Origin: an uncultured Bacteroidales bacterium
Lineage (GTDB): Bacteria > Bacteroidota > Bacteroidia > Bacteroidales > P3
NCBI GenBank assembly: GCA_946621635.1
Contig: CAMOOR010000002.1
Coordinates: forward strand, 33,944-97,943
Length of the DNA: 64,000 nt
Direction: 5' to 3'
Both the position numbers and the translations under genes were made by a program. This document shows positions 5,311-21,351 of this stretch, piece after piece. The notes beneath the pieces are model-generated. The model was not told where the DNA came from, ran no database searches, and saw nothing but the letters and a program-made list of their open reading frames with translations. Position 1 is the stretch's first letter. Every line of letters begins with the position of its first letter.

Positions 5311-5892
5311 ATGACAAAGAATCTCTACATAATAGCAGGTTGCAACGGAGCTGGCAAGACGACAGCTTCCTACACCATACTGCCCGAGATTCTTGACTGC
5401 CGCGAGTTCGTCAATGCCGATGAAATAGCCCGTGGCCTCTCGCCATTCAACCCCAACGGCATGGCCATAGAGGCTGGTAAACTAATGCTGAAACGCATAA
5501 AGGAGCTGCTCAGCCGCGACGAATCCTTTGCCATAGAGACCACCCTCGCCACACGCTCTTATGTCAATCTTGTGCATCAGGCACAGGCCAAGGGCTATCT
5601 CGTTACTCTGGTGTTCTTTTGGCTCAACAGCCCAGAGTTGGCGCTACGGCGTATTGCCGAGCGTGTACAGAACGGTGGCCACGATATTCCAGAGCCAACA
5701 GCACGACGTAGGTACATTGCAGGTATTGACAACCTCTTTAACCTATACATCCCGGAGGTTGACTATTGGATGATTTATGACAATAGCGAGTCGCCCTGTC
5801 TTCCCGTTGCACAAGGGAAATCAACGAAGACATCAACCCTCTACGATGAGGACAAACTGAATAAAATCAAGAGTTATGTCAGAAAAAGATGA
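5311..5892 (+). CDS. Zeta-toxin-like / AAA-family P-loop kinase (COG4185-type)
   Basis: Walker A motif GCNGAGKTT lies near the N-terminus. The ~190-aa size and overall sequence look like zeta-toxin-family ATPases. Confidence 0.65.
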   Translation: MTKNLYIIAGCNGAGKTTASYTILPEILDCREFVNADEIARGLSPFNPNGMAIEAGKLMLKRIKELLSRDESFAIETTLATRSYVNLVHQAQAKGYLVTLVFFWLNSPELALRRIAERVQNGGHDIPEPTARRRYIAGIDNLFNLYIPEVDYWMIYDNSESPCLPVAQGKSTKTSTLYDEDKLNKIKSYVRKR

Positions 5893-8871: not shown

Positions 8872-10092
8872 ATGGCGAAACCAACATGTATAGATCTATT
8901 TGCGGGCTGCGGGGGACTCTCTCTCGGCTTGTACCTTGCCGGATGGCAAGGCCTTTTCGCCATTGAAAAAAACGCATTCCCATTTGAGACGCTAAAGCAC
9001 AACCTTGTTGACAATAAGAAACACTTCGATTGGCCGGACTGGCTGCCGCAAACCAACCACGACATAAACGAGGTGCTGGAGAAATATCAGGACCAACTGA
9101 AAGCCTTGCGGGGCAAAGTGGATTTGGTGGCTGGTGGGCCTCCGTGCCAAGGGTTTTCTATGGCCGGCAAACGTGTCGAAGACGATGTGCGCAACCAGCT
9201 TGTCTTCTCCTACATAAAGTTCATCGATTTTGTGCGTCCCCGCATGCTCCTCTTCGAGAATGTCAAAGGTTTTACCTATGCATTTGACAAAAAGAATGAC
9301 AGCGGCGCTGAACCCTACTCGCATAAGGTGATTAGAGGATTGCAACAATTGGGATACAATGTCAAACCCCACGTTTTTGACTTCTCCAATTATGGGGTTC
9401 CTCAACGGCGCAAACGTTTCATATTAGTTGGAGTCCAAGATGGGTTAGGTAGCCCTGACAACTTTGAGCAACTGTTGTTGACCCATCGTGATGCCTTCCT
9501 GAAAAGCAAAGGCTTAAAGCCTAATGTCACACTGAAGGAAGCCATATCCGACCTGCTCCGCAGCAACGGTGAACTTCCTACTTCGGACCGCAAAGGCTTC
9601 AATTCCGGAGTATATGGCAATGCCCAGTTGAGCAACTACGGAAAAGCGATGCGCGGAGATTATCCAAAGACACACACCATTCCCGACAGCCACAGTTTTG
9701 CCCATCATACACCCGAAAAGATTGCATTATTCCAACGCCTATTGGCCGAATACCAACCCCGAGGCAAACGCATTGATGGCAAAGCTCGCGAGGCTTGGGG
9801 CATCAAGCAAAGAGGAATAACAGTGTTAGACCCCGATGCCGTTTCACCAACTATAACTGGACAGCCTGACGACTACTTGCATTATTCAGAGCCCCGCATC
9901 ATGACCGTCCGTGAGTGTGCTCGCATTCAATCGTTCCCTGATTGGTACGAGATAAGAGCAAAATACACCACTGGCGGAGATATGCGCAAGTTTGAGGTAC
10001 CACGCTACTCTCAGGTCGGCAATGCCATACCTCCTCTCTTTGCCGAGCAGGCTGGAATTGTTTTAAAGGAGATGTTGCAGAATGAAAGATAA
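8872..10092 (+). CDS. dcm: DNA (cytosine-5)-methyltransferase
   Basis: All canonical m5C-MTase motifs are present: I DLFAGCGGLSLG, IV GGPPCQGFS, VI LLFENVKGF, VIII QRRKRFILVG, IX TVRECARIQSFPDWY, X QVGNAIPPLFA. Confidence 0.93.
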   Translation: MAKPTCIDLFAGCGGLSLGLYLAGWQGLFAIEKNAFPFETLKHNLVDNKKHFDWPDWLPQTNHDINEVLEKYQDQLKALRGKVDLVAGGPPCQGFSMAGKRVEDDVRNQLVFSYIKFIDFVRPRMLLFENVKGFTYAFDKKNDSGAEPYSHKVIRGLQQLGYNVKPHVFDFSNYGVPQRRKRFILVGVQDGLGSPDNFEQLLLTHRDAFLKSKGLKPNVTLKEAISDLLRSNGELPTSDRKGFNSGVYGNAQLSNYGKAMRGDYPKTHTIPDSHSFAHHTPEKIALFQRLLAEYQPRGKRIDGKAREAWGIKQRGITVLDPDAVSPTITGQPDDYLHYSEPRIMTVRECARIQSFPDWYEIRAKYTTGGDMRKFEVPRYSQVGNAIPPLFAEQAGIVLKEMLQNER

Positions 10093-12448
10093 TCTACAAT
10101 TCCGTGTTAGTGCAGAACTGAAAAACATTCTGGGTCGGGATTTGATTACAAGTCCCGACATCGCCATATTGGAGTTGGTCAAGAACTCATACGATGCCCA
10201 TGCTACCAAAGTGGAAATCACTTTTGACGACGACTATATTGCCATAGCTGATAATGGGAAGGGCATGTCGAAAGACGACTTAATCAACAAATGGTTGTTT
10301 GTCGCCTATTCTGCCAAGAGCGATGGAACGGAAGACAAATCCTATCGTAGTAAGTTCAAACGCCATTACGCAGGCGCCAAAGGCATTGGCCGAATGTCCT
10401 GCGATCGATTGGCTCGTTACCTCACCCTTACCACACGAAGTGTGGAAGAAAACAAGACGGAAATTCTCAATGTTGATTGGAATGTTTTCGAGATTGACAA
10501 GCAGAAGGAGTTTGACACAGTCAATATCCCCCATGAAACAAAAGACGACCTCACAAAGTTTCCGTTGGATTCCCCCACTGGAACCATTCTAGAGTTTACA
10601 GGCCTACATCTTCCATGGAGCCGTGAGGACATTAAACGACTTCGAAAGTCTCTGGAAAAGATGATTAATCCATTCTCAGGAACGGATGATGATTTCCAAA
10701 TTGAGATCATTGCTCCAGCAATGAAAGAGGATGATGAGAATACAGAGTCTCCACATGAAGTGGTTAATGGTATTGTCGAAAACACCATTGCCGATGTTCT
10801 AAAGCTAAAAACCACCCAAATAGAAAGTCAGATAAAAAACGGCATGATTTATACTTCTTTAACCGACCGTGGTGTTAAGATGTATGAAATCGAAGAACAT
10901 AACAGTGTTTATTCAAAATTAGCGTCTGCTTCTATTAGTTTATTCTTTCTAAATCGAGCAGCCAAATATAATTTTACTGCAAGAATGGGTATCGAACCGG
11001 TTAACTATGGTAATGTTTTTTTGTTCAGAAACGGTTTTAGAATTTTACCATTCGGTGATTATAACGATGATAGCTGGGGATTGAACCAAAGACAACAACA
11101 AGGTTATAATCGTCGTTTAGGTACCCGTGATTTGTTTGGACGAGTGGATGTTGAAACAGACGATGTGGATTTGATTAAGGAAGTTTCAAGTCGCGATGGA
11201 GGGTTAATCAAGACTGATGCTTCACAACAATTGATGAACTATTTTACAGAGACTCATAAACGGTTGGAACGCTATGTGGTTGGCGTTTTATGGGGAGAAG
11301 GGTTCATAAGAAAAGAGTATTTTGTCAATCAAAGTGCAGCTGAGAGGGCCCGAGAAAAATTAAAAGAAACGGACAAAGACTTGGAATCTGCTGATCACTT
11401 ATATTCAAACATTGGTAGTAAGATTGATTTCATGCAACTTATCCGTTCGCTCGTAAATGACAATTCCATCGATGTAAAGTATTACAATGAGGAATTGGCA
11501 GACATTGTTTCCAATCCTTCAGAGACGGAAGTGATTCAAGCGCAGATGTTTGATGATGTCCGAAAGATGGCCGAAAAAACCAACGATGCTGCTTTATTGG
11601 ACAAGATAGCCGACTTCGAGCGTCACATGGATGAACTACGCTGCCAGAAAGAGGATGCTGAACGCAAAGAAAAAGAAGAAAGAAAAGCGAAAGAACTAGC
11701 GGAACGAAAAGCAAAAGAGGAGGAAGAGAAACGCAAGAAAGTCGAAATAGAGCTTAAACAGCGAACAAAACAAAACCTATTTCTGCAATCTGTCGGGAGT
11801 CTTGACACCGACCGTATATTAAAATACCACCACGATATACGCATTCATGCAGCAACTATACATAACACGATTGGCCAGATTTTAAGAAAAGCGAATCAGG
11901 GTTCATTGTCAACAGAGGATACTATCAAGATGATTGAACGTATCTCCCGCGCTAATGACAAGATAACCTCTATCGCCCAATTTGCCACCAAAGCGAACTA
12001 CAGCATCAATGCAGACACAATCAATGCAGACATTGTAAATTACATCGATGAATATATCAACAATGTACTGCCGGAGTTCTATGGAGATATTCAATTGCAT
12101 TGTAGTAATAAATCCTGCACAAAGGTCATTGCTTTCTCTCCATTGGAAGCAAGTATATTCATAGACAATCTTGTATCAAATACAGTTAAGGCAAATGCCA
12201 AGCATTTTGACGTGGTTTTCGAAAAGGACAATGATGCTGTATGTATGACCATCACGGATGATGGCGACGGCCTATCGCCAGATATTGCCGACCCGAATAG
12301 CATTCTGGAGAAAGGTTACACAACAACCAATGGTTCCGGATTAGGCCTCTATAATGTGGCCTCATTTGTCAAGACGGTTATGCATGGCTCTGTTTCTGTT
12401 GAAAACAAGCTGGGCAAGCAGGGATTTAAACTAAAAATAAAATTCTAA
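10082..12448 (+). CDS. Dual-GHKL protein: N-terminal MORC/MutL-like HATPase_c_3 module, coiled coil, then histidine-kinase core (H-box plus HATPase_c)
   Basis: The N-terminal Bergerat boxes are ELVKNSYDA, DNGKGM and GAKGIGR. A Lys/Glu coiled coil (ERKEKEERKAKELAERKAKEEEEKRKK) follows, then an H-box-like YHHDIRIHAATIHN. A second ATPase has NLVSNTVKA, DDGDGL and GSGLGL. The start codon overlaps the dcm stop by 11 nt. Confidence 0.75.
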   Translation: MKDNLQFRVSAELKNILGRDLITSPDIAILELVKNSYDAHATKVEITFDDDYIAIADNGKGMSKDDLINKWLFVAYSAKSDGTEDKSYRSKFKRHYAGAKGIGRMSCDRLARYLTLTTRSVEENKTEILNVDWNVFEIDKQKEFDTVNIPHETKDDLTKFPLDSPTGTILEFTGLHLPWSREDIKRLRKSLEKMINPFSGTDDDFQIEIIAPAMKEDDENTESPHEVVNGIVENTIADVLKLKTTQIESQIKNGMIYTSLTDRGVKMYEIEEHNSVYSKLASASISLFFLNRAAKYNFTARMGIEPVNYGNVFLFRNGFRILPFGDYNDDSWGLNQRQQQGYNRRLGTRDLFGRVDVETDDVDLIKEVSSRDGGLIKTDASQQLMNYFTETHKRLERYVVGVLWGEGFIRKEYFVNQSAAERAREKLKETDKDLESADHLYSNIGSKIDFMQLIRSLVNDNSIDVKYYNEELADIVSNPSETEVIQAQMFDDVRKMAEKTNDAALLDKIADFERHMDELRCQKEDAERKEKEERKAKELAERKAKEEEEKRKKVEIELKQRTKQNLFLQSVGSLDTDRILKYHHDIRIHAATIHNTIGQILRKANQGSLSTEDTIKMIERISRANDKITSIAQFATKANYSINADTINADIVNYIDEYINNVLPEFYGDIQLHCSNKSCTKVIAFSPLEASIFIDNLVSNTVKANAKHFDVVFEKDNDAVCMTITDDGDGLSPDIADPNSILEKGYTTTNGSGLGLYNVASFVKTVMHGSVSVENKLGKQGFKLKIKF

Positions 12449-12453
12449 CGATT

Positions 12454-13344
12454 ATGAATTTGAAATACCGAATACTGTGGATTGAGAACGAGGAAGATTG
12501 GGTAGAGAGTATTGAAGACCAAATTCAAGAATATCTTGAAGATTTGGGGCTCGTCTATGAGAGAAAACTAATTGCAAAAGAAGAACAAGGTATCAGCTAT
12601 AATGATTATGACTTAATCCTTATGGACTTAAATCTCGCCGACCAACCCAATGGAGCGGAACTTATATCCAAAATACGAGATTTGGGTGTGTATACAGATG
12701 TCGTATTCTATTCAGCGAGTGGTATAGACGAATTAAGAGCGAAAGGAAGGGAGAAAGAGCTTGAGGGTGTATTCTATAGTGGTCGCACTCCAGATACAAC
12801 ATTTGTGAATAGAGTAAAGGCTGTCATTGACGCCACGCTAAAGAAAGTCCAAGACTTGAACAATCTACGCGGACTTGTCATGGCTGAAGTCAGTGAACTT
12901 GATGCAATGATGGATAAAATCATCCCATTGTATTTCAACACGGAGGAAAGAATGGCGTTGTTCCACAAGCATATTACCGCCAACAGAGAGAAAACCCTTC
13001 AGAAGTCATTAAACTGCATCAACAAATGTCAGCTTTCATGGCGAGGCATTGGCATTCAAGAGATAGTCCTTCAGTTAGACTCGTCACAAAAAGCCCGTGC
13101 AATAAAAATCATTATTGACCAAGAGAAACCTGACTTTTACAAAGGCGAGAACTTCTATAAAGAATACGATGCCGCTGTTATCACACCTCGGAATGAACTA
13201 GCGCATTGCAAGAGTGAACTTCGTGATGGCCAAGAGATTCTTTTGACCAGAAAAGGAGACAAGTGCTTCAATGAGGCGTTCTTTAAAGAGATTCGCAAGA
13301 ACATCTTGAAGTATTCAAGTATTTTTAATGAACTTTTGCAATAG
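12454..13344 (+). CDS. Response regulator: REC receiver domain fused to a helical C-terminal domain with a HEPN-type RNxxAH motif
   Basis: The REC part has ILWIENEED and LILMDLN (putative phospho-acceptor D58, codon 12625-12627). The C-terminal part has TPRNELAH (R246..H251, nt 13189-13206), which fits the Rx4-6H HEPN signature. The gene starts 5 nt after the kinase stop codon. Confidence 0.7.
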   Translation: MNLKYRILWIENEEDWVESIEDQIQEYLEDLGLVYERKLIAKEEQGISYNDYDLILMDLNLADQPNGAELISKIRDLGVYTDVVFYSASGIDELRAKGREKELEGVFYSGRTPDTTFVNRVKAVIDATLKKVQDLNNLRGLVMAEVSELDAMMDKIIPLYFNTEERMALFHKHITANREKTLQKSLNCINKCQLSWRGIGIQEIVLQLDSSQKARAIKIIIDQEKPDFYKGENFYKEYDAAVITPRNELAHCKSELRDGQEILLTRKGDKCFNEAFFKEIRKNILKYSSIFNELLQ

Positions 13345-13407
13345 ATGCCGAAAAAGAAATATACATTCATAGACTTATTCGCAGGCGGCGGAGAGTTTTC
13401 GGGGTGA
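13345..13407 (+). pseudogene. 20-codon remnant of a second C5-DNA-methyltransferase (motif I only)
   Basis: The ATG directly abuts the upstream stop codon. The translation MPKKKYTFIDLFAGGGEFSG* is a textbook m5C-MTase N-terminus with motif I (FxGxG), truncated by TGA. Confidence 0.6.
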
Positions 13408-13449: not shown

Positions 13450-14226
13450 ATGGTGAACAAACAAAAAAAATGGACCAGAGAAGAATTGATATTGGCACTG
13501 AGTGTGTACTTTCAGCTTCCTTTTGGACGACTAAACCACACCACGCCAGAGGTAAAAGAGCTGGCAAAAATATTAGGGCGTTCGGATAATTCTGCTGCTT
13601 TGCGTTTGTCTAATTTTGCTGCTTGCGACCCATACATTATCAATTCTGGACGTACGGGTATGCGTGCAGGGATTCCTGTGTGCAAACCCATTTGGGATGA
13701 ATTTGCCGATGACAAAGAACGACTGTTTAACGAGGCACAACATATCAAAGCTACACTACTCCAAAAGACAGTCGAGGAGACATTGAACATTTCCAAACAA
13801 GATCTTGAAGGGAAAGAGAGGTCTGTTGTCATCAAGCAACACGTTAACCAATCCGTGTTTCGTACGATGATACTCTTTAACTATGAAAATTGTTGTGCTA
13901 TTACTGGCATCAACATCCCAGAACTACTTGTTGCTGGTCATATTATACCCTGGGCAAACAGCACTCCTCAGCAAAAGTTAAATCCGGAAAATGGAATATG
14001 TTTATCCCCACTTTACGACAAGGCTTTTGATAAAGGCTTCATTACCATATCTCCGGATGATTACACTGTCCGTATTTCTTCCGCATTGCGTGAATACGAG
14101 AAAAAGGAATATTTCAACAAGCACTTTGGCAGTATCAATGGTCAAAGAATAAATATGCCTATAGAACACAAACCAAACCGAGACTATTTAGCTTACCATC
14201 GCGATAATATTTTCTTGGGGGATTAA
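13450..14226 (+). CDS. HNH endonuclease (HNH_2 / COG3440-type putative restriction enzyme)
   Basis: The C-terminal half has CCAITGINIPELLVAGHIIPW...NPENGICLSPLYDKAFDKGFITI, typical of the HNH_2 family. The N-terminal WTREELILALSVY region is common in stand-alone restriction-type HNH proteins. Confidence 0.85.
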   Translation: MVNKQKKWTREELILALSVYFQLPFGRLNHTTPEVKELAKILGRSDNSAALRLSNFAACDPYIINSGRTGMRAGIPVCKPIWDEFADDKERLFNEAQHIKATLLQKTVEETLNISKQDLEGKERSVVIKQHVNQSVFRTMILFNYENCCAITGINIPELLVAGHIIPWANSTPQQKLNPENGICLSPLYDKAFDKGFITISPDDYTVRISSALREYEKKEYFNKHFGSINGQRINMPIEHKPNRDYLAYHRDNIFLGD

Positions 14227-14280: not shown

Positions 14281-15360
14281 ATGGACATTCACTCATTGTA
14301 TGAAAGAATATGTAATATGCTTCCGATTACTTGGTTGGATGGGGAAGTATTGTCATTTCAAAAGAAATTGTCAAGTCAATTAGACCAATATTGGGGTTTA
14401 ATTAAAGAAATTGATATAAAAGATAGACCTGCCGAATGGGATGATATCAAAATTACTATCAAATCTTTGAACAAGAAAATAGTAGAAATTATCAACGACG
14501 AATATAAAGGATATCATTCGACTGCATTTATGAGCCTTCGAACATTACTTGAAGACAATCGTCCCAATACAAATTTGCATATTAAAGATAGTCTTATTTT
14601 TTACGATTTACCTGAAATGACAAAGACATATCGAATTCGAATGTTTGACTTTGATAAGCGTAAAGGTGTCACATTCAAAGATATGTTCCATATTCCATTT
14701 GACAAGCGAGGAATCGTAAAAACGGAGCGCTTTAGTATGCCAGGATATCCATGTCTTTATCTTGGTAAAAGTGCATACGGATGTTGGGAGGAAATGGGTC
14801 AACCTTCCGTGGATAATTGCATGGTATCTTGCCTTGAAAATCAGGAAACGGTCAAATTAATTGACCTTAGAATACCCACTGAAGCAGCTTTTAGGGATAG
14901 GCTTAAGGATTATTTGATTATCCTGCCTATAATCATTTCGTGTATGGTGCAAGTTAAGAACCGTACAGATGTTTTCAAGGCAGAATACCTTATTCCCCAA
15001 CTTATCATAGAATGGCTTATTTATCACAACAAGTCTGAACACGACAAAATACTAGGTGTTACTTATACATCTTCTGCCAAGAATAATTCTTTCGGTTTTC
15101 CTCCGTATGTTTTTGATAACTATGCGATACCTGCTGTAATGGGCAAAAAAGACTCAAAGTATAGTTCAACACTGTGTCGAATCTTCAGAATTACAAATCC
15201 CACATGCGATGAATTTGAATCAATCGTTAGAGGTCCATACGCCAGAATTGCATATAGCGATCCTGATCCCCAAGAGGCAGCATACAAAAATTCATTATTT
15301 GGTGCATTGGAGAGTGCATTAAGTGAACGAGAAAGATTTCCATTTAATCATATTATATAG
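14281..15360 (+). CDS. RES-domain protein (NAD+-targeting toxin family) with a ~100-aa N-terminal extension
   Basis: The R-E-S signature is present: TERFSMPGYPCLYLGKSAYGCWEEMG (R and E), then ILGVTYTSSAKNN (S). Confidence 0.7.
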   Translation: MDIHSLYERICNMLPITWLDGEVLSFQKKLSSQLDQYWGLIKEIDIKDRPAEWDDIKITIKSLNKKIVEIINDEYKGYHSTAFMSLRTLLEDNRPNTNLHIKDSLIFYDLPEMTKTYRIRMFDFDKRKGVTFKDMFHIPFDKRGIVKTERFSMPGYPCLYLGKSAYGCWEEMGQPSVDNCMVSCLENQETVKLIDLRIPTEAAFRDRLKDYLIILPIIISCMVQVKNRTDVFKAEYLIPQLIIEWLIYHNKSEHDKILGVTYTSSAKNNSFGFPPYVFDNYAIPAVMGKKDSKYSSTLCRIFRITNPTCDEFESIVRGPYARIAYSDPDPQEAAYKNSLFGALESALSERERFPFNHII

Positions 15361-15538: not shown

Positions 15539-15895
15539 ATGAATTTAGAAAACTATCGCGAATATTGCCTGTCGATGGGCGAGGATGCTGGCTCCATTGT
15601 GCTACCGCCAAAGGTATTGAATGCCCGTTATGTGATGTTGCACAATGGCACAAACGGTACCTTGTTCAAACTAAAAGGTGCAGGGCCTCGTTTCATATCG
15701 AAAGAAACCCTGCAAAAGAAAGGCTTCGAAACCCTCGGTCATGACTACTACCTAGTTAATACTTTTGATACCGCACAATCAAAAGACTACAACAACCTTT
15801 CCTCTCATGGCCGGGGGAAACAGACTACCACTCCATGGTTTGCCACCTGGGAAGAATTGATGAATAATGATAATCGCTATGGAAAACAATCATAA
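15539..15895 (+). CDS. Hypothetical protein; the first ~16 aa resemble an MmcQ/YjbR-family N-terminus
   Basis: The 118-aa ORF begins MNLENYREYCLSMGED, like the start of YjbR/MmcQ. I do not recognise the rest. Confidence 0.4.
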   Translation: MNLENYREYCLSMGEDAGSIVLPPKVLNARYVMLHNGTNGTLFKLKGAGPRFISKETLQKKGFETLGHDYYLVNTFDTAQSKDYNNLSSHGRGKQTTTPWFATWEELMNNDNRYGKQS

Positions 15896-16112: not shown

Positions 16113-17126
16113 ATGACTAACGAAATTCAATTCATCTTATATAATCTTCCTGATAATGAAGGAAGTGTGCATGGTGTAGTGCAGGATGAGACTATATGGC
16201 TAACGCAAAAGGCGATGGCGCAGTTGTTTGGAGTGAACGTTCCTGCCATCAGCAAACATCTGAGAAACATATTCGACTCAGAAGAGTTGAACGAAAATGT
16301 GGTTGTTTCCAAAATGGAAATAACCACTGAACACGGAGCTATTGAAGGGAAAACACAGACCCACGAGGCCATGTTTTACAATCTTGACGCCATCATATCT
16401 GTCGGCTATCGCGTCAACTCTGCCAAAGCCACGCACTTCCGACAGTGGGCGACAAAAGTATTGAATGAGTATATCCGCAAGGGGTTTGTCTTGGACGACA
16501 ATAGGCTGAAACAAGGAGAGGCGGTGTTCGGCAAGGACTATTTCCGCGAGTTGTTGGAACGTATCCGATCCATCCGCGCCAGCGAACGACGCATCTGGCA
16601 GCAAATCACTGACATCTTCGCCGAGTGCAGTATAGACTACGACAAATCGTCGCCTGTAACTCAGGATTTCTACGCCATGGTGCAGAACAAATTCCACTAC
16701 GCTATCACCGGCAAGACGGCGGCGGAAATCATCTACACCTCCGCCGATCACACCAAGGAACACATGGGTCTGACGACTTGGAAGAACTCACCCGACGGAC
16801 GCATCCTAAAATCGGATGTCACCATAGCCAAGAACTATCTCGACGAACAACAGATACGCCGTTTGGAGCGTGCCGTAACGGGTTTCTTCGATTACATTGA
16901 GGACCTGGTGGAAACTGAGAACACTTTCACCATGGAGCAGTTCGCCGCCAGCGTCAACGAATTCCTGAATTTCCGTCGTTTCAAAATACTCCCCAACAAA
17001 GGCTCTATTTCTAAAACCATGGCCGAAGAAAAAGCTTCCGCCGAGTACGATATTTTCAACCGTACACAAAAGATAGACTCCGACTTTGACAAAGCTGTGC
17101 GGCAACAACTCGGAGACAAAAAGTAG
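16113..17126 (+). CDS. RhuM-family virulence/defence-island protein
   Basis: 337 aa with WLTQKAMAQLFGVNVPAISKHLRNIF...YNLDAIISVGYRVNSAKATHFRQWATKVL..., characteristic of RhuM. Confidence 0.85.
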   Translation: MTNEIQFILYNLPDNEGSVHGVVQDETIWLTQKAMAQLFGVNVPAISKHLRNIFDSEELNENVVVSKMEITTEHGAIEGKTQTHEAMFYNLDAIISVGYRVNSAKATHFRQWATKVLNEYIRKGFVLDDNRLKQGEAVFGKDYFRELLERIRSIRASERRIWQQITDIFAECSIDYDKSSPVTQDFYAMVQNKFHYAITGKTAAEIIYTSADHTKEHMGLTTWKNSPDGRILKSDVTIAKNYLDEQQIRRLERAVTGFFDYIEDLVETENTFTMEQFAASVNEFLNFRRFKILPNKGSISKTMAEEKASAEYDIFNRTQKIDSDFDKAVRQQLGDKK

Positions 17127-17130
17127 TTCT

Positions 17131-18035
17131 ATGACCGACACCATGACACCCTAGCAGCGGCACCGCTGCATGTCGCACATACGCAGCAAGGCCACGAAGC
17201 CGGAACTGCTGGTGCGGCGGTGGCTGTGGAGGCATGGGTATAGGTATCGGTTGAATGTGAGGAGTGTGCCGGGGAAGCCGGACATCGTGTTGAGGACTTA
17301 CCGCACGGCAATATTCGTCAACGGGTGCTTCTGGCACGGACATATCGTGAGAATGCGCGAATGTGGGAATGCGTTAATGCGTGAGTCAGAGGAACTGCAA
17401 AGCGGAAATAATCTACAAGATTTACAAGATTTCGCAAGTGCAGAGCGCGAGCAGGAGAATAAAGATATACCGAGCTCCCCCTGCTGCAAGATTCCGCAGA
17501 CCAACCGCAGCTTCTGGCTGGAGAAAATACGCCGCAACCAAGAGCACGACCAGCGCAACTACGCCCTGCTGCAGGACAACGGCTGGCAGGTCATCGTCGT
17601 ATGGGAGTGCCAACTGAAGTCCGACAAGATAGAGCGCACCATGCGCGAGGTGGAGCTGCTGCTGAACACCAATCTGCTATCCCGGTATAAACACACCCCC
17701 ATCCCTTACCCCACCGAGGAGGACGACCAATTGCCTATGGCCGCCGAGGATTAAAGATTCCACAGGTACTCTTTCAGGGGGACTTTGCCGGAGGGGGTGA
17801 GGTGGATGCCTTCGGAGGTCAGGAGGGAGGCTTGGGCGGGGTAGTGCGGGGCAAGGCGGCCGGAGGCGTTGACGACGCGGTGACAGGGGAGATCGGCATC
17901 GGGAGCCGTTCGCATGATGCGGCCCACCAGGCGGGAATGATTGGGCCAGCCACACAAGGCGGCGATACGGCCATAGGTAAGCACCCGCCCACGCGGTATC
18001 TGGCGGACGATGTCGTAGACCTCGGCTCGAAGGGT
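17131..18035. repeat. Segmental duplication, copy 1 (vsr plus convergent MGMT-like gene)
   Basis: It aligns by eye with 19117-19986 over most of its length, starting exactly at the vsr ATG. The aligned stretches I compared carry scattered substitutions. Confidence 0.85.
17170..17754 (+). CDS. vsr: Very-short-patch repair endonuclease, copy 1 (5'-truncated by an in-frame TAG, with a 43-codon in-frame insertion; possibly decaying)
   Basis: Vsr signature: SHIRSKATKPE...PGKPDIVL...AIFVNGCFWHGH...KIPQTNRSFWLEKIRRNQEHDQRN...GWQVIVVWECQL. The paralog's start (ATG 17131) is followed here by TAG at 17152-17154, where copy 2 has GAG. Confidence 0.7.
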   Translation: MSHIRSKATKPELLVRRWLWRHGYRYRLNVRSVPGKPDIVLRTYRTAIFVNGCFWHGHIVRMRECGNALMRESEELQSGNNLQDLQDFASAEREQENKDIPSSPCCKIPQTNRSFWLEKIRRNQEHDQRNYALLQDNGWQVIVVWECQLKSDKIERTMREVELLLNTNLLSRYKHTPIPYPTEEDDQLPMAAED

Positions 18036-18068
18036 GGCCTCGCTCGGCTGTGCTGCAACGTTTATCAT
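17751..18068 (-). CDS. MGMT-family protein (O6-alkylguanine transferase DNA-binding domain, PCHRV retained), copy 1
   Basis: EVYDIVRQIPRGRVLTYGRIA...DLPCHRVVNASG. The start is ambiguous (18068 or 18116). Its stop overlaps the vsr stop in a TTAA tetranucleotide. Confidence 0.75.
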   Translation of the reverse strand: MINVAAQPSEATLRAEVYDIVRQIPRGRVLTYGRIAALCGWPNHSRLVGRIMRTAPDADLPCHRVVNASGRLAPHYPAQASLLTSEGIHLTPSGKVPLKEYLWNL

Positions 18069-18180
18069 GAACGAATAACGCAATGCGTTGCCAATTATTG
18101 TTTCTCCTTTTATCATATTCCCCTGCTCGCGCTACGCGCTTGCGAGATCTCGTAGATCTTGTGGATTAACAGAAAAAATA

Positions 18181-19116: not shown

Positions 19117-19662
19117 ATGACCGACACCATGACATCCGAGCAGCGGCACCGCTGCATGTCGCACATACGCAGCAAGGCCACGAAGCCGGAACTGCTGGTG
19201 CGGCAGTGGCTATGGGGGCATGGGTATCGATACAGATTGAACGTAAAGAGTGTGCCGGGCAAGCCGGACATCGTGCTGCGGCCCTACCGCACGGCGATAT
19301 TCGTCAACGGGTGCTTCTGGCACGGACACGGTGTGCGGCCGGAGGCCGCACAAATTGAAAATTCAAAATTGAAAATTGAAAGCTCCCCCTGCTGCAAGAT
19401 TCCACAGACCAACCGCAGCTTCTGGCTGGAGAAGATACGCCGCAACCAGGAGCGCGACCAGCGCAACTACGCCCTGCTGCAGGACAACGGCTGGCAGGTC
19501 ATCGTCGTCTGGGAGTGCCAACTGAAGCCCGACAAGATAGAACACACCATGCGTGAGGTGGAGCTGATGTTAAATAGCAACATGCTTTCGATTTACAAGC
19601 ATCATCCAGTCCCATACTCCACAGAGGAAGAGATGCCTATGCCGAAGGCGGCGGAAAACTGA
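19117..19662 (+). CDS. vsr: Very-short-patch repair endonuclease, copy 2 (full N-terminus, with a 17-codon in-frame insertion)
   Basis: MTDTMTSEQRHRCMSHIRSKATKPE...CFWHGH-[insert]-SSPCCKIPQTNRSFWLEKIRRNQERD...VVWECQL. Confidence 0.85.
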   Translation: MTDTMTSEQRHRCMSHIRSKATKPELLVRQWLWGHGYRYRLNVKSVPGKPDIVLRPYRTAIFVNGCFWHGHGVRPEAAQIENSKLKIESSPCCKIPQTNRSFWLEKIRRNQERDQRNYALLQDNGWQVIVVWECQLKPDKIEHTMREVELMLNSNMLSIYKHHPVPYSTEEEMPMPKAAEN

Positions 19663-19986
19663 TGGAGTTTAGCTCCAACAAGGCAATAAATCTTGCAATT
19701 ATTCTATCACCCACAAGTACTCTTTCAGCGGGACATTGCCGGAGGGGGTGAGGTGGATGCCTTCGGCGGACAGGAGGGAGGCTTGGGCGGGGTAGTGCGG
19801 GGCGAGGCGGCCGGAGGCGTTGACGACGCGGTGGCAGGGAAGATCGGCATCGGGAGCCCCACGCATGATGCGGCCCACTAGGCGCGCATGATTGGGCCAG
19901 CCGCATAAGGCGGCGATACGGCCATAGGTGAGTACCCGCCCGCGCGGTATCTGTCGGACGATGTCGTAGACCTCGGCACGAAGGGT
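19117..19986. repeat. Segmental duplication, copy 2 (vsr plus convergent MGMT-like gene)
   Basis: See copy 1. Confidence 0.85.
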
Positions 19987-20031
19987 CTCTTCTGTGGGTT
20001 GCACTCTCATACCTTCAGGAACGCTATCCAC
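19699..20031 (-). CDS. MGMT-family protein (PCHRV retained), copy 2
   Basis: It is near-identical to copy 1 from TLRAEVYDIVRQIPRGRVLTYGRIA onward. The start is 20031 or 20010. Confidence 0.75.
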   Translation of the reverse strand: MDSVPEGMRVQPTEETLRAEVYDIVRQIPRGRVLTYGRIAALCGWPNHARLVGRIMRGAPDADLPCHRVVNASGRLAPHYPAQASLLSAEGIHLTPSGNVPLKEYLWVIE

Positions 20032-20127: not shown

Positions 20128-21351
20128 ATGAAGAAAATCTACACCTTTATGATGGCCGCCCTGTGTCTGATGGCCATCGGATGCAAGCAGAAAACAACTG
20201 AGAAAACCACCGACATGCAGTATCGTCCGCTGGGTGCCACTGGGCTGGAAGTGAGCGAGATCAGCATCGGATGTGGCGGCTTCGAGAAACTGGACAGTGC
20301 CGCCTCGCTCGAGCTGATGACCATGGCGCTGGACAGCGGCATGAACTACATCGACATCTACGATGCCAGCCCTAAGACGCGCTCCAATATCGGCTATGCC
20401 CTCCAGGGCCGCCGCGACGAGATGATCATCCAGGGCCACATCGGCACCATCTACAAGGACGGCCAGCACACCCGCACGCGCGACGTGGAGGAGACCAAGG
20501 CCGGTTTCGAGGACCTCCTTGCCCGTCTGCACACCGACCACATCGAGGTGGGCATGATCCACATCACCGACAGCCACGAGGAATGGGAAGAGATACAGAA
20601 CTCGCCCTTCCTCGACTACGTCTTCCAGCTGAAGAAAGAGGGCAAAATCAAGCACATAGGCCTCAGCAGCCACAACGCCGAGGTGGCCCTGCGCGCCGCC
20701 AAGAGCGGATGGGTCGAGGTCATCATGTTCAGTCTCAACCCCGCCTTCGACCAGCTGCGCGGCGGCGCCATCCCCTGGGACAAGGGCGCCATGGACAACC
20801 TCCAGGGCGGCATCGACCCCGTGCGCGTGGAGTTCTACGACTACTGCGCCACGCACCACATCGGCGTCACCGTCATGAAAACCTTCGGCGGCGGCGGCAA
20901 GCTGCTCGACGAGAAAGCCTCGCCCCTCGGCGTGGCCTACACCCCCGAGCAGTGCATAGCCTACTGCCTGGCCAAGCCCTGCATCTCCACCTGCATCCTC
21001 GGCATCGACAACCTCGACGAGCTGAAGCGCGACCTCCACTGGCTCCACGCCACCGAGGCCGAGAAAGACTACACCAACGTCGCCAAGCGCGAAAAACCCA
21101 CCCTCGGCGGCGACTGCACCTACTGCAACCACTGCTCGCCCTGCACCCAGGGCATCCCCATCGCCCGCGTCAACGAACTGCTCGACAAAGCCGAGCTCAA
21201 CGGCCTCACCGACGACATCCAGGCGCAATACAACCTCCTCGACCACAAGGCCTCCGAGTGCACCCACTGCGGTGCCTGCCTCAGCCGCTGCCCCTTCGGC
21301 GTCGACATCCCCGCCCGCATGGACGCCGCCAAAGCCCTGTTCGAAAAATAG
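20128..21351 (+). CDS. Aldo/keto reductase with a C-terminal 4Fe-4S ferredoxin domain
   Basis: MQYRPLGATGLEVSEISIGCGGF is AKR-like. The C-terminus has CTYCNHCSPC...CTHCGACLSRCP. The start is uncertain: 20128 (MKKIY..., lipoprotein-like leader) or the internal MQYRPLG. A TAttTTTG box lies at 20097-20104. Confidence 0.8.
   Translation: MKKIYTFMMAALCLMAIGCKQKTTEKTTDMQYRPLGATGLEVSEISIGCGGFEKLDSAASLELMTMALDSGMNYIDIYDASPKTRSNIGYALQGRRDEMIIQGHIGTIYKDGQHTRTRDVEETKAGFEDLLARLHTDHIEVGMIHITDSHEEWEEIQNSPFLDYVFQLKKEGKIKHIGLSSHNAEVALRAAKSGWVEVIMFSLNPAFDQLRGGAIPWDKGAMDNLQGGIDPVRVEFYDYCATHHIGVTVMKTFGGGGKLLDEKASPLGVAYTPEQCIAYCLAKPCISTCILGIDNLDELKRDLHWLHATEAEKDYTNVAKREKPTLGGDCTYCNHCSPCTQGIPIARVNELLDKAELNGLTDDIQAQYNLLDHKASECTHCGACLSRCPFGVDIPARMDAAKALFEK

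Follow-up and report, generated by a model that had tools for sequence, protein, structure and literature searches.

Proteins in which two GHKL-type ATPase domains share one polypeptide are already known from restriction–modification (R-M) contexts, where the basic architecture was described computationally in 2008 and 2021. The putative restriction endonuclease R.EcoUTORF4938P of REBASE was recorded as combining an N-terminal GHKL domain with a C-terminal GHKL domain of the kinase type (Orlowski & Bujnicki, 2008; PMC2441816), and paraMORCs were defined in R-M operons in the same year (Iyer et al., 2008). Later, proteins with the domain order HATPase_c_3, HEF_HK, HATPase_c were reported, 91.6% of which are linked to Response_reg_2 genes and whose neighborhoods are enriched in C5 methylases, HNH_2, and Vsr (Bellieny-Rabelo et al., 2021; PMC8011034). 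For these proteins, an uncharacterized cytoplasmic two-component-like system as well as signaling cascades controlling R-M were proposed, and no second domain was found in the response regulator (RR)-like proteins (PMC8011034). Here, a gene of the same design is described, which is located at positions 10082 to 12448 of a stretch of 64,000 nucleotides from an uncultured Bacteroidales bacterium (GenBank assembly GCA_946621635.1, contig CAMOOR010000002.1, positions 33,944 to 97,943; hereafter "the window"). Its product, a dual-GHKL kinase, is encoded between a C5 DNA cytosine methyltransferase (Dcm) and a partner protein with a receiver domain.

The present analysis adds the conserved core of Dcm, kinase, and partner, the receiver and probable HEPN domain of that partner, a cassette exchange in which the sensor is kept, and the merely accessory nature of the neighboring HNH endonuclease. 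A methylation-linked DNA sensor, which activates a HEPN RNase via His-to-Asp phosphotransfer and thereby serves abortive defense or addiction, is the reading we prefer, with a probability of roughly 45%. The features on which it is based are as follows (aa, amino acids; AF2, AlphaFold2 model).

8872..10092, + strand: C5 DNA cytosine methyltransferase (Dcm), 406 aa (Pfam DNA_methylase 2.5e-54; TIGR00675 dcm)
10082..12448, + strand: dual-GHKL protein, paraMORC-type sensor and histidine-kinase transmitter (Pfam, NCBIfam, AF2, Foldseek, relatives)
10082..11281, + strand: N-terminal module, aa 1-400, GHKL ATPase and transducer-like beta-rich domain (HATPase_c_3, MutL/HtpG/BbrUII/HgiDII matches, Foldseek)
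11588..11794, + strand: uninterrupted long helix, aa 503-571, by which sensor and transmitter are joined (AF2; identity drop against class-B kinases, see below)
11807..11989, + strand: DHp helical hairpin, aa 576-636 (AF2 helices 576-605 and 611-636; Foldseek; NCBIfam)
12014..12445, + strand: CA (catalytic ATP-binding) domain, aa 645-788 (HATPase_c 7.7e-21)
12454..13344, + strand: partner, 296 aa, with a receiver domain (aa 1-125) and a helical HEPN-like domain (aa ~133-296) (AF2, Foldseek, conservation in 50 partners)

The published family is represented by the Escherichia coli UTI89 locus (NC_007946.1 4836000-4841692, L088 in our set), which encodes Dcm, a 986-aa ATP-binding protein (R.EcoUTORF4938P in REBASE), and a 555-aa receiver protein. 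Used as positive control, it was recognized by HEF_HK (PF19191, E 1.5e-25) and Response_reg_2 (PF19192, E 1.8e-29). PF19191 did not match the window kinase or its C-terminal half at E<=10, nor 57 diverse relatives, nor the members from Pseudomonas, Vibrio, Methylobacterium, Enterobacter, and Stenotrophomonas; PF19192 gave no match for the window partner or for 10 partners of both classes described below. With the Enterobacter homolog as query, blastn likewise found nothing in E. coli genomes. The UTI89 and window loci have in common the order of Dcm, a protein composed of HATPase_c_3, DHp, and HATPase_c, and a receiver protein, and the HEF_HK/Response_reg_2 systems are likewise soluble, located on mobile islands, and often found near HNH_2 and Vsr. 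The N-terminal halves of both kinases are homologous (31% identity over aa 6-153) and carry the motif YG..RxGxRIxPxGD, but the part they share is confined to the paraMORC half and a weak match of the CA domain. The proteins differ in size (kinase 788 vs 986 aa, partner 296 vs 555 aa in the window and UTI89, respectively), the two partners display no detectable similarity (BLASTP E 0.34), and the conserved H-box with His-Glu/Asp described for HEF_HK is missing from the window family. The output is HEPN-like in the partners of the window lineage, whereas no other domain was reported for the RR-like proteins in 2021. Because both Pfam models miss the window family, the kinases share little, the partners are unrelated, and the H-box differs, we classify the window lineage by sequence comparison as a sister lineage of the same design outside the published Pfam families.

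The initial reading of the window, which was made from the sequence alone (the sequence-only reading), had considered an ATP-driven DNA clamp fused to a kinase transmitter to be an unusual input logic. Such an input is uncommon among kinases, but it is not undescribed, as the same design is found in the sister family (PMC2441816; PMC8011034). In UTI89, the sister system has the cdiBAI locus on one side and hly/cnf1 on the other, in a pathogenicity-island region. Approximately 350 residues of its 555-aa receiver protein extend beyond Response_reg_2 without a family match, and a different effector may hide there.

Architecture of the dual-GHKL kinase and its partner

The open reading frame (ORF) 10082..12448 is a single uninterrupted frame of 788 aa and a stop codon, and the opposite strand is stop-rich and closed across this region. 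The 788-aa sequence was found unchanged on seven independent contigs, and homologs detected at E<=1e-30 form 482 clusters (50% identity), nearly all of which are 740-920 aa long and cover both halves end to end. Two Pfam domains scored far above their gathering cut-offs, HATPase_c_3 at aa 24-149 (E 7e-25, 88.1 bits, cut-off 25) and HATPase_c at aa 694-781 (E 7.7e-21, 75.1 bits, cut-off 26.4); both are present in all 57 diverse relatives sampled, with identities down to 31%. That a single gene without an overlooked stop or frameshift encodes two Bergerat-fold modules in one polypeptide, as the sequence-only reading had claimed, is thus confirmed. No point was found in favor of an artefact in the form of two falsely joined genes or a decaying pseudogene, and its probability is practically negligible in view of the continuous frame, the recurrence of the identical protein on seven contigs, and hundreds of full-length homolog clusters across phyla, in which every catalytic residue is invariant. 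A fusion artefact is therefore excluded.

At least 576 kinase loci were counted in species-representative genomes of Bacteroidota, Spirochaetota, Pseudomonadota, Verrucomicrobiota, Bacillota, bacteria of the candidate phyla radiation (CPR), and one archaeon, a methanogen. The host of the window carries hallmarks of Bacteroidota, and the nearest relatives belong to rumen and gut Bacteroidales. A full-length homolog was not found in phage records, and plasmid records contained only distant relatives matching the N-terminal half alone (<=55% of the query). Profile searches revealed no nuclease domain in the 788-aa protein. The catalytic residues of both ATPase sites and His584 are kept across 134 relatives; since these motifs and His584 are intact and conserved, both ATP sites and the phospho-acceptor look functional. 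The gene product is interpreted as a genuine soluble sensor kinase whose input is a GHKL ATPase of the MutL/paraMORC type rather than a PAS, GAF, or membrane domain.

The N-terminal module contains all three motifs by which GHKL ATPases are defined, namely motif I (E-x3-N-x2-D; E31/N35/D38), motif II (D-x-G-x-G; D57/G59/G61), and motif III (G-x-x-G-x-G; G98/G101/G103), and these residues are invariant in the 134 relatives. The segment NGFRILPFGDYNDDSWG covers aa 317-333 and includes the conserved sequence NGFRILPFGD (aa 317-326). The best sequence matches of the module are the N-terminus of BbrUII/HgiDII, MutL, MzaB, and HtpG. The NCBIfam model BbrUII/HgiDII (NF050001) aligned to aa 7-220 with an E value of 3.5e-26, and with PADLOC-DB v2 the kinase showed only N-terminal GHKL similarity, to the REase_II, MzaB, and TmtA models. 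In Foldseek searches, the N-terminus matched the N-terminal domain of MutL in complex with ADP (1b62, GHKL and transducer; 304 columns, template modeling (TM) score 0.42 relative to the target) and also Hsp90, while Pfam scans of the kinase gave no profile match for an S5-type transducer domain. The R-M gene neighborhood that defines paraMORCs was found as well: all 80 loci have a linked Dcm, and genes for HNH, Vsr, and additional methylases are frequent. Sequence and model comparisons thus support a MutL/paraMORC-like module that is homologous to the N-termini of R-M-associated GHKL proteins. The sequence-only reading had likewise assigned the N-terminus to the ATPase modules of R-M neighborhoods, and its two further proposals, a long charged coiled coil joining this module to the kinase core and a C-terminal module of the histidine-kinase type, agree with the following results.

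The charged coiled coil ERKEKEE...KRKK (ERKEKEERKAKELAERKAKEEEEKRKK) spans aa 527-553 and lies inside the continuous helix 503-571 of the AF2 model, within which the exchange breakpoint to the class-B kinases described below is also located. The putative phospho-acceptor His584 (codon 11831-11833), which is followed by Asp585, is invariant in 134 of 134 relatives, and the NCBIfam kinase models align from aa ~584-614 to 781. In the CA domain, the N box (N696/N700), the G1 box (D726-x-G-x-G), and the G2 box (G751-x-G-x-G) are invariant or nearly so in the relatives. The C-terminal approximately 230 residues superpose on the whole DHp and CA domains of HK853, CpxA, and EnvZ chimeras (Foldseek; E ~3e-10, TM score 0.55-0.62 relative to the target). 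Judged by these sequence and model matches, the C-terminal part is a true class I histidine-kinase transmitter, for which autophosphorylation and phosphotransfer are predicted.

The N-terminal half of the partner protein is assigned to the receiver (REC) domains with a predicted (beta-alpha)5 fold. The Pfam model Response_reg scored below its cut-off (E 6e-6, 26.8 bits, cut-off 30.2), the AF2 model has a predicted local distance difference test score (pLDDT) of 83.7 with strands at residues 3-10, 33-40, 54-58, 83-87, and 107-110, and Foldseek aligned it to many REC domains (TM score 0.6-0.7, ~4 Å). The putative acceptor Asp58 (codon 12625-12627) lies where beta3 ends. Among 50 partners, which come from many phyla, D58, D53, R139, G140, R246, and H251 are invariant, and E11 and N12 are conserved.

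HEPN domains are defined by the motif Rx4-6H, in which the Arg is directly followed by a polar residue (N/D/H) (PMC3710099). The partner contains the sequence R246-N-E-L-A-H251 (13189-13206), in which R and H are found in 50 of 50 partners and N247 in 49. Its C-terminal half is all-helical in the AF2 model (pLDDT 85-95), with helices at residues 135-160 and 164-185, an insert (186-233), a helix at 234-250 that ends in the motif, a hairpin, and a last helix at 274-295. This predicted topology fits the HEPN definition, according to which helices 2 and 3 of a four-helix core are separated by an insert and helix 3 ends with the motif, which continues into the next loop. When 35 isolated C-terminal domains of partners were scanned one by one against Pfam, the most frequent families were all HEPN families (HEPN_Swt1 7, RiboL-PSP 5, Abi_2 2, MAE_28990 2, Apea 2, Cthe2314 1); the best HEPN profile match was RiboL-PSP with 3.3e-05, and the HEPN alignments span the domain and the motif. 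A DNA-binding or transcription-factor output domain was not found by profile searches in partners of either class, and PADLOC-DB v2 gave no match for the partner. According to profile matches and model, the C-terminal half is probably a HEPN domain and thus a putative RNase.

The three-gene cassette and the exchange of its output

The most informative context of the kinase gene, which is absent from the sequence-only reading, consists of the Dcm gene, which overlaps it, and of the receiver-effector gene, which lies 5 nucleotides (nt) downstream. The 3' end of dcm overlaps the kinase start by 11 nt, and the partner gene begins 5 nt after the kinase stop codon. Linkage was examined in 80 kinase loci from other species: Dcm is present in all of them and directly upstream on the same strand in 68, usually with an overlap of 1-11 nt, and the partner gene abuts the kinase stop in 77. 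A minority of the related loci have a Vsr gene close to the cassette. Because Dcm, kinase, and partner recur across the 80 loci, HNH is present in few of them, and class A has no other conserved gene downstream, the conserved functional unit is a mobile cassette of these three genes. In the window, the kinase gene is situated on a low-GC island (38-42% GC compared with ~60% in the flanks), and the identical cassette was found in other genomic contexts, once adjoining an rve integrase. A promoter and terminator scan with a sigma-70 model, which is unsuited to Bacteroidota, performed no better than on shuffled sequence. A more distant pair of Dcm and a 711-aa dual-GHKL protein with both HATPase domains is encoded on the Stenotrophomonas rhizophila plasmid CP031730.1 (L086) near a TnsA transposase gene. 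No partner is annotated directly downstream in the PLSDB gene table, which is incomplete, and the pair may represent a partner-less or differently organized variant.

The partner genes fall into two classes. Class A, the type in the window, encodes REC-HEPN proteins of approximately 300 aa. Class B encodes proteins of ~230-240 aa and is followed by one further conserved gene of ~215 aa in 27 of 28 loci (L010-L016, L018, L021, L022, L029, L035, L038, L046-L055, L057, L060, L062, L071, and L073). The class-B kinases of loci L010-L016 are 80-83% identical to the window kinase over aa 1-500, but only ~24% over aa 575-788, whereas class-A kinases with a similar N-terminal identity keep 70-91% over aa 575-788. 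Within the charged coiled coil, between aa ~541 and 570, the identity to the class-B kinases drops from 60-80% to ~10%. This pattern shows that the transmitter half and the downstream partner gene are exchanged and inherited together, matched to each other in the way expected of a kinase with its cognate receiver, and that the conserved Dcm and paraMORC sensor are naturally joined to the exchangeable outputs at the coiled coil. The swap at this joint reveals a naturally occurring site at which outputs can be plugged into the sensor, and such a site is of use in engineering.

The additional class-B gene contains an invariant His (in GHG, FLGHG) and an invariant Cys (C-x-S, LLSC-x-S). Its product aligned with the large subunits of caspase-1 and caspase-6 over the His-Cys region (E ~0.03), a match outranked by P450 noise, and gave single matches to the clan-CD peptidase families Peptidase_C25 and C50 (E 0.12). 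These weak similarities are suggestive of a protease effector of the caspase-like (caspase/CHAT) type, which may take the place of the HEPN domain.

Proposed mechanism and alternative explanations

The three genes of the cassette are tightly coupled and co-inherited, and the output of the partner is a helical domain with a HEPN signature instead of a DNA-binding domain. In the proposed mechanism, Dcm would mark the host's own DNA. The paraMORC module, acting as an ATP-dependent dimerizing clamp, would report DNA without this mark, which could be invading DNA or, after loss of the cassette, the host chromosome. The resulting conformational change would pass down the coiled coil into the DHp domain, the C-terminal CA domain would phosphorylate His584, and the phosphoryl group would be transferred to Asp58. 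Phosphorylation of the receiver would switch on the HEPN RNase, probably via dimerization, and RNA cleavage would lead to growth arrest, with abortive infection or post-segregational killing as the outcome. The cassette would hence resemble an R-M system in which a phosphorelay that leads to RNA cleavage serves as the "R" arm, with the HNH endonuclease as an add-on.

This mechanism parallels that of the paraMORC-Ymh HEPN fusions, of PrrC/RloC (PMC3710099), and of VcSduA (PMC12137116). The fusions, in which a paraMORC is joined directly to a Ymh-type HEPN domain in R-M neighborhoods (PMC3710099; R.NmeAIP type, PMC2441816) and for which an action like that of PrrC/RloC was proposed, also couple a paraMORC-type ATPase to a HEPN RNase next to methylases. 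They unite ATPase and HEPN in one polypeptide, whereas the window system is predicted to interpose a phosphorelay of DHp, CA, and REC, and the probable HEPN domain of the window partner belongs to a different, unnamed family. PrrC and RloC are HEPN RNases combined with an R-M-linked ATPase that kill upon infection (PMC3710099); in contrast to the window system, their ATPases are of the ABC/P-loop type and no phosphorelay is involved. In VcSduA of Vibrio cholerae, a GHKL ATPase is fused to a Shedu nuclease, ATPase and nuclease are both needed for anti-phage activity, and the model of the protein is a dimer of entwined subunits whose middle domain resembles a clamp (PMC12137116). VcSduA, the sole experimentally validated GHKL-nuclease fusion found in this analysis, likewise ties a paraMORC-type GHKL ATPase to defense, but by direct fusion to a PD-(D/E)xK DNase and without a kinase, receiver, or methylase. 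The BbrUII/HgiDII family possesses a homologous N-terminal GHKL module and is paired with a C5 methylase; the C-terminal domain of HgiDII, which has no assignment, is replaced by the kinase transmitter in the window protein. With MutL and MORC, the window kinase shares the Bergerat motifs and, according to its model, possibly the GHKL and transducer fold. It lacks the C-terminal dimerization/endonuclease domain of MutL and the chromatin-reader domains of MORC, and it scores far under the MutL cut-offs. A kinase-to-receiver relay that activates an effector is also the principle of the anti-phage system Detocs. Detocs differs from the window system in its sensor and its effector, and it has no methylase.

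Several observations weigh against the proposed mechanism. The role of the N-terminal module as an ATP-driven DNA clamp is one that we purely infer, DNA binding and methylation sensing included. In the literature, no experimental work was found on the window lineage or the HEF_HK sister lineage, and PADLOC-DB v2 recognized no known defense system at the locus beyond the generic N-terminal GHKL similarity. The residue following His584 is acidic in the window kinase (Asp585) but mostly non-acidic in the family (Q48/H20/S14/T11/D7 across 134 relatives), which is atypical for HisKA-type autokinases, and the conserved Lys of beta5 in the receiver is seemingly replaced by Arg111. The AF2 model of the kinase is of only moderate quality, with a mean pLDDT of 66.7 (80-90 in the domain cores, moderate in aa 300-450). 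With regard to the HEPN assignment, all profile matches for which a bit score was shown lie below the Pfam gathering cut-off (the score of the 3.3e-05 match was not displayed), and the window partner's own C-terminal domain had no HEPN match in Pfam and no match in a PDB sequence-profile search. Fold searches with the whole partner model against the PDB and BFVD yielded REC matches only; they are dominated by REC and silent on the C-terminal domain.

The alternatives are nevertheless less well supported. It is unlikely that the protein is the ATPase or regulatory subunit of a DNA-cutting restriction enzyme, in which the kinase-like half or the HNH endonuclease would provide or control cleavage. 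This explanation would account for the BbrUII/HgiDII restriction enzyme family being the best NCBIfam match, for the PADLOC REase_II models matching the N-terminus, for the entry of the E. coli relative R.EcoUTORF4938P in REBASE as a putative restriction endonuclease, and for the HNH gene two genes downstream. However, the similarity to HgiDII is restricted to the GHKL N-terminus (positions 3-209 of the 659 in the model; 91.9 bits, cut-off 550), the 788-aa protein is devoid of a detectable nuclease domain, HNH is absent from approximately 90% of the related loci, and in the window it stands behind a truncated second dcm, which suggests a separate R-M unit.

A two-component system that regulates the expression or activity of the neighboring R-M genes without an effector cascade is quite unlikely, although signaling cascades that control R-M were proposed by Bellieny-Rabelo et al. 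(PMC8011034) and the genes have methylases and nucleases all around them. In both partner classes, no output of the DNA-binding or transcription-factor type could be detected, and the class-A output contains the invariant HEPN-type RNxxxH motif. Moreover, besides Dcm there is no recurrent candidate target, with HNH in 9 of 84 loci and nothing else conserved downstream in class A. Sensing of nucleotide pools (ATP/NTP level) in place of DNA by the N-terminal GHKL domain, with the cassette answering metabolic stress, was suggested for the sister family in 2021 (PMC8011034) and is compatible with the ATP binding by which GHKL domains are defined. We consider it very unlikely because it leaves unexplained the linkage in 80 of 80 loci and the translational coupling to a DNA methylase as well as the predicted MutL-like GHKL and transducer fold and the homology to R-M-associated paraMORCs.

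If the preferred reading of a methylation-linked sensor acting on a HEPN RNase is true, the restriction arm of an R-M system would be a two-component signaling pathway, by which the cell answers the detection of unmethylated DNA with a signal in the cytoplasm rather than by cutting DNA. DNA clamps of the MutL/MORC type, two-component phosphotransfer, and HEPN RNases of abortive infection would be linked in one system. The kinase output would provide an easily measured biochemical readout for bacterial paraMORC ATPases and could help to explain how eukaryotic MORC proteins couple ATP-driven dimerization to the state of the DNA. More tentatively, and at clearly less than even odds, the cassette may stand for a widespread class of methylation-linked immunity or addiction systems, in which a MutL/MORC-type ATPase reads methylation and starts a relay to exchangeable effectors, a receiver-HEPN RNase in the window and a receiver adaptor with a possible caspase-like protease in close relatives. 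Gut and rumen Bacteroidales commonly carry the system, which is also found in Pseudomonas and Vibrio, and the sister family is present in uropathogenic E. coli; therefore, phage and plasmid traffic in microbiomes may be affected.

Accessory genes and surroundings of the cassette

Downstream of the partner gene, the following features were identified on the island and at its edge.

13345..13407, + strand: second dcm remnant, a 20-codon ORF (MPKKKYTFIDLFAGGGEFSG, then stop), N-terminus with methylase motif I only (comparison with relatives)
13450..14226, + strand: HNH_2 endonuclease, 258 aa, accessory (HNH_2 2.5e-12; PADLOC HNH 6e-83)
14281..15360, + strand: 359-aa gene product, accessory (only a weak RES match, E 0.021)
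15539..15895, + strand: 118-aa gene product (travels with the cassette in near-identical copies)
16113..17126, + strand: RhuM-family gene on the island (Virulence_RhuM 1.6e-103; weak Bro-N match)
17170..17754, + strand: Vsr very-short-patch repair endonuclease, island edge (TIGR00632 vsr 7.3e-36)

In relatives such as L005, the stop codon of the partner gene is immediately followed, at the same junction, by a second Dcm of full length. In the window, the truncated second dcm is followed by the segment of HNH, 359-aa, and RhuM genes, and the upstream Dcm is the only adjacent full-length methylase for the HNH endonuclease. Because HNH follows the truncated second dcm, its position suggests that it came from a separate R-M unit. 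Among the 84 loci examined, 9 contain HNH homologs, and 4 of these are copies of the window cassette; owing to this low co-occurrence, HNH was excluded as effector of the system. The 359-aa and 118-aa genes accompany the cassette only in the near-identical copies L001-L004. RhuM has been proposed as a toxin domain in R-M and PrrC-like neighborhoods in a survey of HEPN proteins (PMC3710099).

Two copies of Vsr, each followed by a convergent MGMT-like DNA_binding_1 gene, were detected at 17170-18116 and 19117-20031. Vsr is the usual companion of Dcm. Compared with the first copy, E values of 4e-137 and 7e-88 were obtained, and the pair flanks an SBP_bac_3 gene just outside the low-GC island. The doubled arrangement may be a duplication or an old insertion scar. 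On the other side, the interval from infB to the island contains a gene for a zeta-toxin/AAA_33-like kinase (5311-5892, + strand), for which no obvious antitoxin was noted. Starting at approximately 21373 (+ strand), a few kb downstream of the cassette, and at 21292 in the near-identical copy L001, there is a large MmeI-family Type IIL R-M gene; the region is therefore a small defense island with several R-M units.

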